Part shown: positions 1 to 15,282 of the stretch, piece after piece
Position numbering within the stretch: the first letter of the stretch is position 1
Layout of the letters: every line of letters starts with the position of its first letter
Origin: a virus
Lineage: Duplodnaviria > Heunggongvirae > Uroviricota > Caudoviricetes
Length of the DNA stretch: 17,497 nt
IMG/VR virus record: IMGVR_UViG_2681813135_000005
Reading direction: 5' to 3' (one strand)
The notes under the pieces: generated by a model
The model's input: only the letters and a program-made list of their open reading frames with translations
Told to the model about the DNA's origin: nothing
The model's database searches: none
Position numbers and translations under genes: made by a program

Positions 1-1284
1 TTACTTCTTCGCCTCTGCAACCACTTTACTACCCACGCCGCGGTTATTGTATTCCCACATGCGGTTGTAGTTAGTGTCATTCAGATTGCGCTGTATTTCG
101 TCGTTATCATCTACGCTGCCGGTATTACCCGCAAACGGACGATTAGAGATCACCGCATCGGCCCACGGTTTAGCCGTGTTAAAACCTTCGTTGATGGCGC
201 TATCACGGATCACCACCTGACCGTTGGTATTGGCATCAACATCCAGCGAGCGGCCCAGTTGCGCCACACCATCACCGAAAGCATTGAAACGGCTGTTTAC
301 GGCGAGGAAACCGTAGTAAATGTTGGACAGCGTAGCCGGTGCAAACACATACGCTTCTTGCTGAGTACGTGAGTTCACCACGCGGAATTCGGTGTTATCG
401 AACACCACTGCGCCGCGACCAGAAACGATATCCACATCCCCTTCAATGTAGCTGTTGGTCACCAGCGTACGCGGCTGACGATTCGTTTCCAGACGGTTCT
501 GCACACCGCTGTTGGTGACAAAGAAGGTGTTCTGACGACCGAGAATGTTAACGTTGTTAATCTGTACCTGGTCACCATCAGTACGCAGTGCCACCGCCGG
601 ATGGTTACCTGCATCTACGCTATCGCCCAGCGTGTTTTCGATGGTCAGATTTTGCAGTTGCAGGCCATTGTTTTGTGACCAGAAGACCGCAGAGCAGAGA
701 ACACCGATACTGTCGCTGCGTTTGCTCTGGCAGCTATCGTACATATACCACGCTGGTTTACCTGGCATATATTTGCCGCGCGGGTTGACGTCGTGACGCC
801 AGTCGGCAGGGCTCATGCCACCATCAAGGGAAAGCCCAATCTTCACATCAATCGGTTTTTCACCTGTACCGTACAGAGTAATTCCACCCGGAGCGGCAGG
901 GACATATACCGTTCCCTGATACTCACCAGGCATCACGGCAATATACTGGCGCTTGTTGGTACGCTTGATAATTGCCGCATCTACCGCCGCCTGAATCGTG
1001 GTATGCGTTACACCTTGAGTGCCCGCCGGGCCGACAACAAAGTCAGGTTGCGCAGGCAGGGTAATCGGGGAAGGATTCCACGCTGCAGCACCTGGTGTCA
1101 GGGATGCAAAATAGTGTTGAGCATCGAAATTCTGCGCTTCTTTTGCCGACAGAATCGGGCGAGAAGAGGTACCAGGCGCGGTTTGATCAGAAGGACGTTG
1201 ATCGGGCGGGGTTGAGCTACAGGCGGTCAGCGTCACGCCAAAAGCCAATGCCAGCGCCAGACGGGAAACTGAAAATGTGTTCAC
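1..1284 (-). CDS. ybhC: Lipoprotein YbhC (pectinesterase-like acyl-CoA thioesterase), host gene bordering attB-lambda
   Basis: Complete 427-aa ORF (ATG at 1284, TAA at 3..1). N-terminus has a signal peptide with lipobox LTAC. Sequence recognised from memory as E. coli YbhC, the gene next to the lambda attachment site. Confidence 0.85.
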   Translation of the reverse strand: MNTFSVSRLALALAFGVTLTACSSTPPDQRPSDQTAPGTSSRPILSAKEAQNFDAQHYFASLTPGAAAWNPSPITLPAQPDFVVGPAGTQGVTHTTIQAAVDAAIIKRTNKRQYIAVMPGEYQGTVYVPAAPGGITLYGTGEKPIDVKIGLSLDGGMSPADWRHDVNPRGKYMPGKPAWYMYDSCQSKRSDSIGVLCSAVFWSQNNGLQLQNLTIENTLGDSVDAGNHPAVALRTDGDQVQINNVNILGRQNTFFVTNSGVQNRLETNRQPRTLVTNSYIEGDVDIVSGRGAVVFDNTEFRVVNSRTQQEAYVFAPATLSNIYYGFLAVNSRFNAFGDGVAQLGRSLDVDANTNGQVVIRDSAINEGFNTAKPWADAVISNRPFAGNTGSVDDNDEIQRNLNDTNYNRMWEYNNRGVGSKVVAEAKK

Positions 1285-1418: not shown

Positions 1419-2489
1419 TTATTTGATTTCAATTTTGTCCCACTCCCTGCCTCTGTCATCACGATACTGTGATGCCATGGTGTCCGACTTATGCCCGAGA
1501 AGATGTTGAGCAAACTTATCGCTTATCTGCTTCTCATAGAGTCTTGCAGACAAACTGCGCAACTCGTGAAAGGTAGGCGGATCCCCTTCGAAGGAAAGAC
1601 CTGATGCTTTTCGTGCGCGCATAAAATACCTTGATACTGTGCCGGATGAAAGCGGTTCGCGACGAGTAGATGCAATTATGGTTTCTCCGCCAAGAATCTC
1701 TTTGCATTTATCAAGTGTTTCCTTCATTGATATCCCGAGAGCATCAACATGCAATGTTGTTGGGATGGCAATTTTTACGCCTGTTTTGCTTTGCTCGACA
1801 TAAAGATATCCATCTACGATATCAGACCACTTCATTTCGCATAAATCACCAACTCGTTGCCCGGTAACAACAGCCAGTTCCATTGCAAGTCTGAGCCAAC
1901 ATGGTGATGATTCTGCTGCTTGATAAATTTTCAGGTATTCGTCAGCCGTAAGTCTTGATCTCCTTACCTCTGATTTTGCTGCGCGAGTGGCAGCGACAGG
2001 GTTTGTTGTTATATGGCCTTCAGCTATTGCCTCTCGGAATGCATCGCTCAGTGTTGATCTGATTAACTTGGCTGACGCCGCCTTGCCCTCGTCTATGTAT
2101 CCATTGAGCATTGCCGCAATTTCTTTTGTGGTGATGTCTTCAAGTGGAGCATCAGGCAGACCCCTCCTTATTGCTTTAATTTTGCTCATGTAATTTATGA
2201 GTGTCTTCTGCTTGATTCCTCTGCTGGCCAGGATTTTTTCGTAGCGATCAAGCCATGAATGTAACGTAACGGAATTATCACTGTTGATTCTCGCTGTCAG
2301 AGGCTTGTGTTTGTGTCCTGAAAATAACTCAATGTTGGCCTGTATAGCTTCAGTGATTGCGATTCGCCTGTCTCGGCCTAATCCAAACTCTTTACCCGTC
2401 CTTGGGTCCCTGTAGCAGTAATATCCATTGTTTCTTATATAAAGGTTAGGGGGTAAATCCCGGCGCTCATGACTTCGCCTTCTTCCCAT
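1419..2489 (-). CDS. int: Lambda-type integrase (tyrosine recombinase)
   Basis: 356-aa ORF beginning MGRRRSHERRDLPPNLYIRNNGYYCYRDPRTGKEFGLGRDRRIAITEAIQANIELF, recognised as phage lambda Int. Lies directly beside the P' arm of attL and overlaps xis as in lambda. Confidence 0.95.
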   Translation of the reverse strand: MGRRRSHERRDLPPNLYIRNNGYYCYRDPRTGKEFGLGRDRRIAITEAIQANIELFSGHKHKPLTARINSDNSVTLHSWLDRYEKILASRGIKQKTLINYMSKIKAIRRGLPDAPLEDITTKEIAAMLNGYIDEGKAASAKLIRSTLSDAFREAIAEGHITTNPVAATRAAKSEVRRSRLTADEYLKIYQAAESSPCWLRLAMELAVVTGQRVGDLCEMKWSDIVDGYLYVEQSKTGVKIAIPTTLHVDALGISMKETLDKCKEILGGETIIASTRREPLSSGTVSRYFMRARKASGLSFEGDPPTFHELRSLSARLYEKQISDKFAQHLLGHKSDTMASQYRDDRGREWDKIEIK

Positions 2490-2685
2490 TTCTGATCCTC
2501 TTCAAAAGGCTACCTGTTACTGGTCGATTTAAGTCAACCTTTACCGCTGATTCGTGGAACAGATATTCTCTTCCATCCTTAACCGGAGGAGGGAATATCC
2601 TGCATTCGCGCACCCATCGACGAACTGTTTCAAGGCTTCTTGGGCGTCGCTGGCGAGCGTTCCACTCCTGAAGTGTCAAGTACAT
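2467..2685 (-). CDS. xis: Lambda-type excisionase
   Basis: 72-aa ORF MYLTLQEWNARQRRPRSLETVRRWVRECRIFPPPVKDGREYLFHESAVKVDLNRPV..., matching lambda Xis in sequence and length. 3' end overlaps the int start. Confidence 0.9.
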   Translation of the reverse strand: MYLTLQEWNARQRRPRSLETVRRWVRECRIFPPPVKDGREYLFHESAVKVDLNRPVTGSLLKRIRNGKKAKS

Positions 2686-2703
2686 CGCAAAGTCTCCGCA
2701 ATT

Positions 2704-2723
2704 ACACGCAAGAAAAAACCGCC
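2704..2723 (-). terminator. Intrinsic terminator-like hairpin immediately upstream of xis (minus-strand sense)
   Basis: Top strand AAAAAA-CCGCC-ATCA-GGCGG. On the minus strand this is a GC-rich 5-bp stem with 4-nt loop followed by a run of six T. Confidence 0.5.
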
Positions 2724-2905
2724 ATCAGGCGGCTTGGTGTTCTTTCAGTTCTTCAATTCGAATATTGGTTACGTCTGCATGTGCTATCTGCGCCCACAGC
2801 ATCCAGTGGTCATAGCAGTCGCTGATGTTCTCGGCTTCGATAACTCTGTTGAATGGTTCTCCATTCTATTCACCTGTGACTCGGAAGTGCATTTATCATC
2901 TCCAT

Positions 2906-2960
2906 AAAAAAACTCGCCGTAGCGAGTTCAGATAAAAGAAATCCTCGTCAGTGCGAGGAT
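2906..2960 (-). terminator. Tandem intrinsic terminator hairpins (minus-strand sense)
   Basis: Hairpin ATCCTCG-TCAGTG-CGAGGAT (2941-2960) followed on the minus strand by TTCTTTTATC. Hairpin AACTCGC-CGTA-GCGAGTT (2911-2928) followed on the minus strand by TTTTTTT (top-strand A-run 2906-2910). Confidence 0.55.
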
Positions 2961-3132
2961 GCTGTTCATTGCTGCTATACACTTTTTTGCTCTCAACGTA
3001 AGCGGTAGCCCATTCTGTTGGGTTGGTGCAGTTGCTTTTAGGAAATGCTATTTACCCCTTAAATGTCGGCTGAAAGAGCTAAAATCCATGCAAAAAATTT
3101 ACGCAATTTTGTGTATTATTGTGCAGTAAGTA

Positions 3133-3735
3133 ATGAGCTATTTTCTGCGCAAAAAATGGATGGTAAATTTGTCCGGGTCAGGAAAAATTTTATGGGCGCT
3201 AAACATGAAAAAAGATTCGTATCCTTATTTGATTTGCATGACAGTTTCAGGGCTGATCTTTATTTTCCTTTTCTTCTGGTGGCGGGCAGATATCTACAGG
3301 GTCACGTTTCTTAATCAGAGTATATCCCACTATTACATTCTGTTTAGCATGGGAATAGCTTTTCTGTTATCTCTGTTTTGGGTTAAGAAGGGGATAGTAA
3401 AACAAAGCGGCTGGAAGAGTCTGTCAGCATACCTTAAGGTTTATGCAGGGATGTGCATATTTGCTGGATTTTTTCTGATTATACCCCTTACGACACTAAC
3501 TTATTTTTTGCCTGGAGAGACATCGTCTTACGTTGCACCGTATCGGTATACTTCCGGTAGTTCAAAAAGTTGTTCTGGAGCTGAGGTGGATGACCCCGAT
3601 CTACATGAGAATATTCGCATTTGCTATCCGTATGGCAATTATGAGTACGATAATATTATCTATGTTGAAAAGAAAATTAATATATTAGGTGCGGTAGTGA
3701 CATATGCACAGACCGCGCGTGATGATACTGAATGA
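3133..3735 (+). CDS. Hypothetical multi-pass membrane protein (AT-rich accessory gene in the ea/b-region position)
   Basis: 200-aa ORF on the strand opposite int/xis. Long hydrophobic segments (LICMTVSGLIFIFLFFWW, ILFSMGIAFLLSLFWV, AGMCIFAGFFLIIPLTTLTYFL) and a hydrophilic C-terminal domain. Visibly AT-rich. The true start may be an internal ATG at 3160 or 3205 (MKKDSYPYL...); no strong SD at any candidate. Confidence 0.6.
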   Translation: MSYFLRKKWMVNLSGSGKILWALNMKKDSYPYLICMTVSGLIFIFLFFWWRADIYRVTFLNQSISHYYILFSMGIAFLLSLFWVKKGIVKQSGWKSLSAYLKVYAGMCIFAGFFLIIPLTTLTYFLPGETSSYVAPYRYTSGSSKSCSGAEVDDPDLHENIRICYPYGNYEYDNIIYVEKKINILGAVVTYAQTARDDTE

Positions 3736-3769
3736 TATAGTATATAGCGGGCAAGTTTTAGTTAATTTA

Positions 3770-3806
3770 TCGAGGTAATATAATTTACCTCGACTCGTTT
3801 GTTCTG
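3770..3806 (+). terminator. Putative intrinsic terminator downstream of the membrane-protein gene
   Basis: Inverted repeat TCGAGGTAA-TATAAT-TTACCTCGA followed by T-rich CTCGTTTGTTCTGG. Confidence 0.4.
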
Positions 3807-3945
3807 GTATTAATATTTCGCTTTACGACCGATTTTTATCTGATGATATCATGCGGTTTTCATATACTGACTTACTGTCTTTTCTCCGTTAGCGATTTTC
3901 TCCTGCTCAGCGATGATTTTATCTTTGGCTTCTAGTTAATTTCGC

Positions 3946-4167
3946 TCACTTCGAACCTCTCTGTTTACTGATAAGCTCCAGATCTTGCTGGCAACTGGCA
4001 CAAGTCCGACAACCCTGAACGGCCAGTCGTCTTCGTTCATCTATCGGATCGCCACACTCACAACAATGAGTGGCAGATATAGCCTGGTGGTTCAGGCGGC
4101 GCATTTTTATTGCTGTGTTGCGCTGTAATTCTTCAATTTCTGATGCTGAATCAATTATGTCTGCCAT
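3946..4167 (-). CDS. DksA/TraR-family C4 zinc-finger protein (phage-encoded)
   Basis: 73-aa ORF with CxxC...17 residues...CxxC (CCECGDPIDERRRLAVQGCRTCASC), the hallmark of the TraR/DksA zinc-finger family. Confidence 0.75.
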   Translation of the reverse strand: MADIIDSASEIEELQRNTAIKMRRLNHQAISATHCCECGDPIDERRRLAVQGCRTCASCQQDLELISKQRGSK

Positions 4168-4221
4168 CTTTCATTAATCCCTGAATTGTTGGTTAATACG
4201 CTTGAGGGTGAATGCGAATAA

Positions 4222-4243
4222 TAAAAAAGGAGCCTGTAGCTCC
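4222..4243 (-). terminator. Intrinsic terminator (minus-strand sense) at the end of the leftward early operon
   Basis: Top strand AAAAAA-GGAGC-CTGTA-GCTCC. On the minus strand this is stem GGAGC/GCTCC followed by TTTTTTATT; it lies just downstream of the ORF ending at 4266. Confidence 0.6.
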
Positions 4244-4265
4244 CTGATGATTTTGCTTTTCATGT

Positions 4266-4481
4266 TCACCGTTCCTTAAAGACGCCGTTCAACATGCCGA
4301 TCGCCAGGCTTAAATGAGTCGGTGTGAATCCCATCAGCGTTACCGTTTCGCGGTGCTTCTTTAGTACGCTACGGCAAATGTCATCGACGTTTTTATCCGG
4401 AAACTGCTGTCTGGCTTTTTTGATTTCAGAATTAGCCTGACGGGCAATGCTGCGAAGGGCGTTTTCTTGCTGAGGTGTCAT
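4266..4481 (-). CDS. Small early-left protein (lambda orf60a/orf63/orf61-region family)
   Basis: 71-aa product MTPQQENALRSIARQANSEIKKARQQFPDKNVDDICRSVLKKHRETVTLMGFTPTHLSLAIGMLNGVFKER starting at the ATG at 4481. The longer 93-aa reading from 4547 is less likely. Position matches the small ORFs between exo and xis in lambda. Confidence 0.55.
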   Translation of the reverse strand: MTPQQENALRSIARQANSEIKKARQQFPDKNVDDICRSVLKKHRETVTLMGFTPTHLSLAIGMLNGVFKER

Positions 4482-4561
4482 TGAACAAGCCCCATGTCGG
4501 CAAGCATAAGCACACAGAATATGAAGCCCGCTGCCAGAAAAATGCATTCAGTGGTTGTCAT
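4478..4561 (-). CDS. Putative 27-aa hydrophobic micro-protein, translationally coupled on both sides
   Basis: ORF MTTTECIFLAAGFIFCVLMLADMGLVQ. Its ATG overlaps the stop of the upstream ORF (ATGA at 4561-4558) and its TGA overlaps the ATG of the downstream ORF (ATGA at 4481-4478). Below the ORF-track size cut-off. Confidence 0.3.
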   Translation of the reverse strand: MTTTECIFLAAGFIFCVLMLADMGLVQ

Positions 4562-7428: not shown

Positions 7429-7809
7429 TCAGTCAGCCCAACCTGATTTCGAGTTTATTTGGGTTTCTGACATTGTGTATTTCTTAATCGTGTCATCGTT
7501 AAAAAGAATAGTAAGTTCTTTTTTCGTACCGTTCGTTCCATTATGGAATAATCCATAGAATGGAATAAAAGTGGTGCCATTAACTTTTACTTTTGCAAAG
7601 GCGTACTTCCAGATCTCGTTTCCACTGTCAGTATATGAAACAGCATCAGGAGAACCAAAGTAAGATTTAACCTCATTCTTGGTTGTTTTACCTTCCTGAA
7701 GTTTAGACTGGACACTAATTTCAGTTTCATTTTTGAGTTGCTGGTTGCCTGAAGAAGCACACCCAGCCAATACAGATGCCATCATGGCAGCGATTAGGAT
7801 TTTTCTCAT
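7429..7809 (-). CDS. Phage-encoded lipoprotein (SmpA/OmlA/BamE-like motif) in the rexAB position
   Basis: 126-aa ORF with signal peptide and lipobox (MRKILIAAMMASVLAGC). Segment KNEVKSYFGSPDAVSYTDSGNEIWKY resembles the BamE/SmpA-OmlA fold motif. AT-rich. Lies between the repressor gene and OL with its own terminator. Confidence 0.75.
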   Translation of the reverse strand: MRKILIAAMMASVLAGCASSGNQQLKNETEISVQSKLQEGKTTKNEVKSYFGSPDAVSYTDSGNEIWKYAFAKVKVNGTTFIPFYGLFHNGTNGTKKELTILFNDDTIKKYTMSETQINSKSGWAD

Positions 7810-12040: not shown

Positions 12041-13459
12041 TTAGAAAATAATGTTTGCTATATCCGAGATAGCATTTAAAGAACCTCTGTGGTCACTTCC
12101 TGTTTTAGGTAAAATATAGGAATATCGAGGGTCTTCATTATATGTTAACTTCCAGTGTTTTCCATCGCTTGACGCACTGAAACCTAAGTCCTTTAAATTT
12201 CTTTGTGTTGCGCTATCCATGCTTCTGTAACCTGTTAAAGTCCTTTTAAGTAATTGGCGGCGACTCTCGGTTTCTTTATTGTATTCATTATTGGCAATTA
12301 GGGATGATAAGATATGGTAGCTTCTACCAAATTCATTTTTATTTTTTATGGCAGTTTTTAGTGCGTCAATAATTATATTTTTGATTTCTCCATCAAAAAA
12401 ATCAGTCTCTTCACCAGCATTAAGCACAATGCTTCCTTGGGCTGAAGCTTGTGATTGAAGAGTGCGTACTCTGTGCTCTAAAGAGGAGATCTTATGCTTA
12501 AGATCTTCTATTTGGTCATCTTTCGCAACATTATCGGCTTCGTAAAGCGCCATCAGTTCGCGTGTGTATTCTCCTCTTTCTTTGAGTGAGTTAATAGAGT
12601 CTTTCGTTTTTCTGGTTTGTATCTCACTCCATCCACTATCTGAGACAGGAGCCATTGTAGTCGTAGCTCTTACAACATCATCAAATAACTCATCTTCAAA
12701 TTCTTTTGCGGTTTTCTCACCACGGCGATAAAAACTGATATTTTGACCCCGTGGCCAATAGATACCAACAGCACCAGCATAGGCATTTTTAGCATTTGTC
12801 TCATTTTTTAGCTTAATAGAAAATAGTCTATTGCTAGGCTCAATTAATACATGTGCTAATCCGCATACCTTTCTTGCAAGGCGTTCTGGGATGATATTGT
12901 GAGCATGTTCATTAAAAAAATACTTGGAGCTAACGTATATTATTGGTAGTCTGTTGTCAGTTTCACCATTTATAACTTTAGCTGCTATATTTAAATGTTC
13001 ATCAGTATCATCTAAGGAATGAGGTTCGACTGACACCTTGAAAATATCATCAAGACCACCAGAAAATTTATCAATCAATCTCATAACAACTAATGGTTTC
13101 TTAGGTTGCGGGGCTAGATAAGCTGCATCTTGGCTTACAACGCTAGATTCCACCTGAATCCACATGGTATCAGTTTTGAGATTTTTATTAATTGAAATAT
13201 CTGTTACCCATTTGTGTGGCTCAGATATTTTCGAATACCTAAAACAGCCTAAACTAGTATCTTTGTTTTTATAAGTTATTATATCAATTCTTTCATTTTT
13301 AGACTCTATGAAGTACTCCTCGCTTTTATAATCACATACTAATTGTGCTGGAATAAAAGTTGTATGTGGTGAGTCGTTTACCCAAGAAAAACATTCATTA
13401 AAGATCTCAGCTAGAGATGTGGAGTTTGAAACATAAAAACCAGTTGAGAAATATTTCAT
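12041..13459 (-). CDS. Large hypothetical protein (472 aa) of unrecognised family: cargo gene at the ren/ninB junction, candidate phage-defence or abortive-infection factor
   Basis: Uninterrupted 472-codon ORF with SD AAGGAA 5 nt before the ATG at 13459. Markedly AT-rich compared with flanking ren and ninB-like genes and transcribed against them. Central predicted coiled-coil (DDQIEDLKHKISSLEHRVRTLQSQASAQ) between an N-terminal region of about 290 aa and a C-terminal region of about 130 aa. No family recognised by eye. Confidence 0.8.
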   Translation of the reverse strand: MKYFSTGFYVSNSTSLAEIFNECFSWVNDSPHTTFIPAQLVCDYKSEEYFIESKNERIDIITYKNKDTSLGCFRYSKISEPHKWVTDISINKNLKTDTMWIQVESSVVSQDAAYLAPQPKKPLVVMRLIDKFSGGLDDIFKVSVEPHSLDDTDEHLNIAAKVINGETDNRLPIIYVSSKYFFNEHAHNIIPERLARKVCGLAHVLIEPSNRLFSIKLKNETNAKNAYAGAVGIYWPRGQNISFYRRGEKTAKEFEDELFDDVVRATTTMAPVSDSGWSEIQTRKTKDSINSLKERGEYTRELMALYEADNVAKDDQIEDLKHKISSLEHRVRTLQSQASAQGSIVLNAGEETDFFDGEIKNIIIDALKTAIKNKNEFGRSYHILSSLIANNEYNKETESRRQLLKRTLTGYRSMDSATQRNLKDLGFSASSDGKHWKLTYNEDPRYSYILPKTGSDHRGSLNAISDIANIIF

Positions 13460-15272: not shown

Positions 15273-15282
15273 ANNNNNNNNN
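15273..15282. other. Assembly gap (10 N) joining prophage sequence to an unrelated chromosomal locus
   Basis: Literal run of 10 n characters. Phage genes on the left, host REP/terminator/yidB on the right. Confidence 0.95.

Follow-up and report, generated by a model that had tools for sequence, protein, structure and literature searches.

A plus-strand gene for a small membrane protein is located at positions 3205-3735 of IMG/VR virus record IMGVR_UViG_2681813135_000005, a stretch of 17,497 nucleotides (nt) which is called the window below. The gene belongs to a lambda/434-type prophage and corresponds to the open reading frame (ORF) known as ORF-22+ in phage 434. The positions of its homologues show the family as cargo of two kinds of temperate phage that are not related to each other: it occupies accessory slots in the xis-exo region of lambdoid phages and in the old/tin hotspot of P2-like phages. 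The most likely function, proposed here tentatively, is an envelope-level protection of the lysogen against superinfecting phages. With slightly more reserve, the family with its three transmembrane (TM) helices and a periplasmic OB-like domain may be regarded as a new, very common single-gene anti-phage system which blocks genome entry and is portable from the P2 old/tin hotspot to the lambdoid ea region. The gene and the elements upstream of its start are the following:

3205-3735, plus strand: coding sequence (CDS) of 176 amino acids (aa) plus stop codon, three TM helices and then an OB-like beta-barrel; 434 ORF-22+, PHROG 1416
3133-3204, plus strand: in-frame upstream extension of a 200-aa ORF, beginning upstream of the predicted -10 element
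3161-3169, plus strand: candidate extended -10 element (TGgTAAATT), with TGnTAA(A/G/T)TT conserved among copies
3070-3125, plus strand: decayed P2-like backbone relic bordering the gpA-gpQ hotspot, consisting of an A-tract with three decamers in 10-bp phase, identified by consensus match

The longest plus-strand ORF of the segment studied (3133-3735, 200 aa) had been taken as the gene in an initial annotation of this DNA. The gene and its strand stand, but a start at 3133 is probably wrong. Met25 of the long ORF, encoded by the ATG at 3205, is invariant in the family alignment (MKK-SYP...), and in the few homologues with N-terminal extensions these are unrelated. The true start is almost certainly the ATG at 3205, giving a protein of 176 aa, and the extension 3133-3204 is probably untranslated. 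Eight mobile or island copies were compared upstream of the ATG. Seven of them, including a Cedecea copy which has none of the boundary repeats described below, contain a TGnTAA(A/G/T)TT element at a distance of 35-42 nt, and a Klebsiella michiganensis copy has TACAAT at the corresponding position. In the window the pattern TGnTAAnTT was found three times with 1.2 expected, which alone is not significant, and a scan for the strict sigma-70 consensus upstream of 3205 revealed no promoter. Conservation among the copies makes 3161-3169 a candidate promoter with a predicted transcript start near 3176. Since the ATGs at 3133 and 3160 precede this position, it fits a translation start at Met25.

Pairwise comparisons of the homologues indicate that the gene is real and under strong purifying selection. 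A search of 5.8 billion proteins yielded 74 relatives; those outside the E. coli lambdoids have 169-180 aa and cover 88% of the query. Homologues with 42-78% identity are spread over five genera. The ratio of nonsynonymous to synonymous substitution rates (dN/dS) is 0.08-0.16 wherever dS is unsaturated. A chance frame, which the initial annotation had named as one outcome that would speak against its reading, is excluded by these ratios. An exhaustive profile search with a hidden Markov model (HMM) of 1.84 billion representatives gave 61 hits. Informative fusions were absent, and nearly all hits were short proteins of about the query size or fragments; P0122, the only large one (3074 aa, E = 3.8e-8), was set aside because it looks like a repeat artefact. 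According to these searches the family is small, narrow and confined to enterobacteria. The gene is abundant there: of 5426 complete E. coli genomes, at least 905 contain the lambdoid version, E. coli 042 among them, a further 470 occurrences are listed for the P2 hotspot (see below), and both the classic phage 434 and O157:H7 carry it. In an O157:H7 strain, int of the ybhC prophage is frameshifted and bet is truncated, and the membrane-protein gene is intact.

As a sequence the gene is already known. In GenBank M60848, which covers int and xis of phage 434, the plus-strand ORF is called ORF-22+, another 434 record (OL657226) contains it as CPT_434_36, and copies exist also in mEp332 and 2B8. 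The 1056-bp region 2890-3945 is 98.5% identical to phage 434 and 99.5% to mEp332, and the protein is 99.4-100% identical over 176 aa to the 434, mEp332 and 2B8 copies. Three different starts are annotated across these records, resulting in 200, 188 and 176 aa, and the protein bears only the database names 'hypothetical' or 'transmembrane protein'. PHROG 1416, a family without assigned function, covers residues 113-200 of the long ORF, its C-terminal half, with E = 7e-51. A sequence search of the PDB gave no match, and the remote homology search, a check proposed in the initial annotation, matched no function-bearing family. Neither the boundary relic nor the association with the P2 hotspot is described in the literature searched.

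The connection to P2-like phages was revealed by the relatives. In P2-like prophages of Salmonella, K. michiganensis, Enterobacter hormaechei and E. coli, homologues with 55-78% identity are found in the interval bounded by the genes Q (portal) and A (replication); in P2 itself, old and tin occupy this interval. In Rousset et al. 2022 (PMC9122126) the gpA-gpQ interval of P2 in E. coli is defined as an anti-phage hotspot. System #4 in Table S5B of that study is a lone protein which lacks Pfam domains, is marked '3 TM' and has the 470 occurrences mentioned above, and SieB-family genes are listed among the hotspot cargo as well. In a BLASTP comparison, System #4 and the window protein are 52% identical over 168 of 176 aa (E = 5e-57), and a CSGA...ICYP motif and the three TM helices are common to both; other P2-borne relatives come closer to the window protein, with 57-78% identity. 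Furthermore, the Cedecea copy is located in a small chromosomal islet, and the chromosomal neighbourhoods of the relatives are not conserved with one another. In the K. michiganensis P2-like prophages (L022-L024, 3281-6623) the gene stands beside a gene for a 790-aa AAA_16 protein and one for a 279-aa protein without domain hit, both on the opposite strand; this pair may be a separate defence system.

From about 130 nt upstream of the ATG onwards, the window resembles the P2-borne copies at the DNA level. The decamers of the window contain TTACGCA, TTGTGTA and TTGTGCA, which are perfect TTGTGCA repeats in four P2-like loci (L010, L011, L025, L026), where the gene follows within about 110 nt after the boundary repeats. 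Compared with the P2-like consensus the relic at 3070-3125 matches at 42 of 56 positions, and the next best place in the window at 27 of 56. When viral contigs were scanned, more than 120 of them contained the triple repeat. In the contigs examined, the upstream sequence and the repeats look conserved, and 84 distinct sequences follow the third repeat; downstream ORFs were callable in 55 cases, all of them foreign to this family, and several of these ORFs code for cargo proteins of other kinds. A conserved upstream part followed by so many different sequences identifies the repeats as P2-like backbone at the hotspot edge. The backbone segment common to P2-like phages reaches exactly to the cos-proximal edge of the old/tin hotspot and has the A-tract and the TTGTGCA decamers at its end. 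P2 itself (L150, 3953-3985) has ATGCA-type repeats at the equivalent place before old, overlapping the upstream part of the mapped old-tin promoter.

Two other readings of the decamers were rejected. An activator or operator site of the gene does not agree with repeats in more than 120 contigs and with 55 cases in which the downstream ORFs lie outside the family, and the label 'CII binding site', which covers part of the repeats in the CPT 434 record, concerns what is P2-like backbone. The 56 bp of hotspot-boundary sequence retained in the window indicate that the lambdoid cassette was probably copied from the hotspot of a P2-like phage together with a boundary piece that has decayed since. 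The relic would be a tangible trace of cargo passing from the accessory hotspot of one temperate phage family to that of another, unrelated one, and bears on the spread of moron and defence cargo.

In the window the gene is part of a variable segment between two conserved flanks. The segment, its flanks and its hairpins are composed as follows:

2961-3933, no strand: variable AT-rich segment of 973 bp in the slot of lambda ea8.5 and ea22 (blastn and composition)
2725-2892, minus strand: ORF55 (lambda p35 homologue), left conserved flank, a pseudogene in the window; aligned with E. coli 042, phage 434 and mEp332
3946-4167, minus strand: TraR/DksA-type zinc-finger gene, right conserved flank (Pfam PF01258, E = 5e-9)
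2910-2929, minus strand: terminator-like hairpin and then a seven-T run (hairpin scan, folding, alignment)
2941-2960, minus strand: terminator hairpin, 't-L4' of GenBank M60848, at which lambda homology ends
4227-4245, minus strand: terminator hairpin and then a six-T run, upstream of the TraR gene in the pL direction (scan, folding)
3770-3793, plus strand: stem-loop with a 9-bp stem, 35 nt past the stop codon (hairpin scan, folding)

The GC content is 0.34-0.41 over 2850-3900 and 0.44-0.53 on either side, in agreement with the AT-rich region beside xis which had been noticed at the outset. Alignment by blastn to lambda and to E. coli FELIX_MS75 is confined to 2686-2960 and 3934-4268. The lambda DNA between the end of homology at 2960 and its resumption at 3934 is exactly ea8.5 plus ea22, so that the placement of the gene in this slot, also claimed in the initial annotation, holds; both lambda and FELIX_MS75 possess minus-strand ea8.5/ea22-type genes inside the same ORF55/TraR flanks. 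Lambda NC_001416 is 97% identical at 30380-30714 to window 3934-4268, which holds the TraR/DksA gene, and that record annotates no gene from ea22 to orf61. Between ORF55 and the TraR gene, the segment is the only stretch read from the plus strand, and the gene runs antisense to the int/xis (pL) operon as had been described. The CDS has a GC content of 0.39 compared to about 0.50 in the flanks. Presence or absence between conserved flanks, the differing GC content and the copies in the P2 hotspot and in chromosomal islets support the reading of 2961-3933 as a self-contained accessory cassette (moron) in antisense orientation within the distal pL operon; this had been the initial view, and purifying selection on the gene points in the same direction.

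The scan detected nine terminator-like sites with two expected. Minus-strand terminators had been proposed to frame the segment, and hairpins were indeed found at 2910-2929, 2941-2960 and 4227-4245; minus-strand hairpins fold beyond shuffled controls (z = -4.2 and -4.1). In comparison to 042, 434 and mEp332, the window has a 2-nt deletion and a C>T exchange within 2904-2929, which create a perfect 6-bp stem core before the seven T and thereby a stronger minus-strand terminator. The terminator-like hairpin assigned to the gene itself exists at 3770-3793, but it is followed by CTCGTTTGTT, a poor T-tail, and its folding (-18.7 kcal/mol, z = -2.6) is more modest than that of the minus-strand hairpins; it is possibly a weak intrinsic terminator. 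A comparison of 2600-4400 with Rfam gave no meaningful match. A 56-aa plus-strand ORF at 2959-3129, annotated as 'putative membrane protein' in 434 and mEp332, is not credible: it is without family match, overlaps the terminator and the P2 relic, and its first ~110 nt are unmatched in the P2-context copies.

The protein had been described as a multi-pass membrane protein. Topology prediction, another check proposed at that time, revealed the three TM helices, but the protein is not simply multi-pass since a soluble beta domain follows at the C terminus. AlphaFold2 (AF2) with the family alignment predicts helices at 5-33, 38-61 and 69-101 and then five strands, with a predicted local distance difference test (pLDDT) value of 84 over the full length; when the C-terminal 79 residues are predicted by themselves, the value is 90. 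Hydropathy windows agree with the three helices. The strands would form a conserved OB-like beta-barrel of ~70 aa. Loop 2 is lysine-rich with a family net charge of +3.5, compared to -0.9 for the C-domain, and two invariant cysteines (C123 and C140) stand at the outer ends of strands that neighbour each other. Together with the positive-inside rule, this pair leads to a predicted topology with the N terminus inside and the C terminus outside, a cytoplasmic lysine-rich loop and a periplasmic, disulfide-bonded C-domain. The alignment columns vary least in the C-domain (entropy 0.95) and most in TM2 and TM3 (1.7-1.8). The periplasmic part, as the most conserved one, is probably the working surface.

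These features form the basis of the proposed protection of the lysogen at the level of the envelope. In the lysogen, where pL is repressed, an extended -10 promoter belonging to the gene itself (~3161-3169) would drive its transcription. The protein would insert with its N terminus inside by means of the three TM helices and the lysine-rich cytoplasmic loop, and loop 1 and the disulfide-bonded OB-like barrel would be displayed on the periplasmic face of the inner membrane. There, the periplasmic domain may bind the incoming genome-delivery apparatus or an inner-membrane component used by it, so that DNA entry would be blocked. Three observations suggest this function: the conserved domain faces the periplasm, the family resides recurrently in the gpA-gpQ hotspot, and the gene is retained in decayed prophages.

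Several points weigh against it. Searches of Pfam, NCBIfam and PADLOC-DB v2.0.0, the last with E up to 1, gave no family match, and the literature searched on the protein accessions, mEp332, the 434 genome and lambdoid hotspots contained no functional study or phenotype. Among the PMC9122126 supplements searched, including the table of tested systems, the sequence of System #4 occurs in Table S5B only, which places it outside the table of tested systems. The P2 hotspot contains non-defence cargo too, and its commonest entry is the StbA/StbB partition pair (PMC9122126 Table S5B). The most divergent relatives (42-48% identical) are chromosomal genes of Klebsiella and Enterobacter mori with a host-like GC content of 0.52-0.55 and an adjoining LysR gene, and a housekeeping envelope role fits these as well as defence does. 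That one family serves siphovirus as well as myovirus prophages speaks against classic self-exclusion, which would be matched to one injection machinery. Finally, the promoter, the topology and the disulfide are all three predictions.

A part of this evidence also fits a role unrelated to phages, which we consider somewhat unlikely and which ranks close behind exclusion. The gene would then be a lysogenic-conversion or fitness factor whose periplasmic domain modulates the host envelope (the stress response, or an inner-membrane transporter or enzyme), or else an orphan immunity protein against a bacteriocin or type VI effector with its target in the periplasm or membrane. The chromosomal host-GC homologues beside LysR in Klebsiella and Enterobacter, the Cedecea islet and the non-defence cargo of hotspots agree with this, and conservation of a periplasmic surface and maintenance in decayed prophages would be expected here as well. 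However, the chromosomal neighbourhoods differ from one another, the phage-borne copies recur in the gpQ-gpA interval of P2-like phages, at four loci directly after the boundary repeats, and searches of Pfam, NCBIfam and the PDB showed no similarity to known immunity, stress or conversion families.

It is improbable that the protein is a single-gene abortive-infection effector which depolarises or permeabilises the inner membrane on sensing an infection, so that the cell dies before phage release. Transmembrane proteins of hotspots are often suicide effectors (PMC9122126), and a 2TM beta-strand-rich effector is a weak structural neighbour in BFVD (E = 0.34). However, this match is far from significant, and no sensor domain or partner gene is consistently linked to the gene in the P2-like loci examined. 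In addition, the TM helices are the least conserved part and the soluble periplasmic domain the most conserved one, which fits poorly with a pore. Least probable is a role of the DNA or RNA with an incidental protein, in which the distal pL operon would be regulated (int/xis retroregulation, antisense) by the transcript of the plus strand or by the AT-rich segment and its terminators: pL-direction terminators flank the segment, which is antisense to pL, and P22 has the antisense aI RNA in the equivalent region, but a dN/dS of ~0.1 with saturated synonymous sites indicates selection on the protein, the protein is kept in P2-like and chromosomal contexts without a pL operon, and Rfam gave no match.

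The surrounding genes of the prophage, which occupies the lambda attachment site, are read from the minus strand. The window starts with ybhC (1-1284, minus strand), after which the prophage begins. In addition to the flanks given above, the neighbours are:

1419-2489, minus strand: int
2467-2685, minus strand: xis
4266-4547, minus strand: ORF at the orf61 position

Further minus-strand genes of the window are orf63, orf60a, exo, bet and gam. ORF55 is annotated as a gene in both the lambda and the 434 records and is undamaged in the alignment of E. coli 042, phage 434 and mEp332. A scan of window 2725-2892 for an uninterrupted minus-strand ORF found none; codon 9 is changed by a nonsense mutation at 2866-2868 from TGG to TAG (CCA to CTA on the plus strand).

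Two further ORFs of the prophage may encode cargo. A 472-aa ORF (12041-13459, minus strand) between ren and the nin-region genes has a match to HEC-07, a candidate defence model of PADLOC (E = 1e-9), and is without Pfam domain. It occupies the position at which phage PhiR26_1 has PD-lambda-1 and is likely a second defence cargo of the prophage. A 126-aa ORF (7429-7809, minus strand) between kil and the repressor gene has a weak match to the BamE domain (E = 1.6e-4, under the Pfam cut-off); the corresponding site of PhiR26_1 is annotated as 'putative lipoprotein', and the ORF is possibly another envelope moron. Prophage homology stops near 15273, past ybcN/ybcO/rusA-type genes, and yidB-yidA-yidX follow from about 15285 on with 100% identity. 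The prophage is a remnant of ~14 kb without late genes. On the K-12 map the yid genes are far from ybhC, and the junction of the remnant with this distant locus points to a chromosomal rearrangement or an assembly join.

Among known proteins, the NfeD-like proteins (PF01957) resemble the window protein in gross architecture, namely TM helices and then a small C-terminal OB barrel, and an NfeD-like viral protein is among the weak BFVD neighbours (E = 0.26). However, PF01957 matched none of 19 family members with E up to 1, and no SPFH partner gene adjoins the window gene. The charge bias and the invariant cysteine pair are predicted to place the C-domain of the window protein in the periplasm, unlike that of NfeD-like proteins.

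In its arrangement the gene is like sieB of lambda and P22, plus-strand, self-promoted exclusion genes inside the leftward pL operon which are expressed in the lysogen; the P22 record annotates the sieB promoter and RNA start. However, sieB is located between ral and N, and the window gene elsewhere. SieB acts by aborting lytic development and not at the periplasmic face. A comparison of lambda SieB with the window protein gave a hhalign probability of 0.1%, and Pfam SieB gave no match. The proposed functional analogues are P22 SieA, HK97 gp15 and T4 Imm, small inner-membrane proteins encoded by prophages or phages which block DNA entry and are expressed apart from the lytic programme. For P22 SieA the hhalign probability is 0.2%. 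None of the three is known to possess an OB-like periplasmic domain.

The closest counterparts are ORF-22+ and System #4. ORF-22+ of phage 434, also present in mEp332 and 2B8, is the same gene at the same position. Phage 434 has an additional ORF114 between xis and ORF55 which is missing in the window, and the ORF55 pseudogene and the one altered terminator are features of the window. System #4 is a member of the same protein family with three TM helices and is single-gene cargo found directly after the boundary repeats at the four P2-like loci. It is carried by P2-like myoviruses, whereas the window copy is lambdoid and has only the decayed 56-bp boundary piece. If the gene serves in defence or exclusion, a compact envelope-level mechanism would be added to a field dominated by cytoplasmic nucleic-acid sensors, and two orphans would obtain a function, the P2-hotspot cargo that ranks fourth in frequency and an ORF of phage 434 that has been without one for 35 years.

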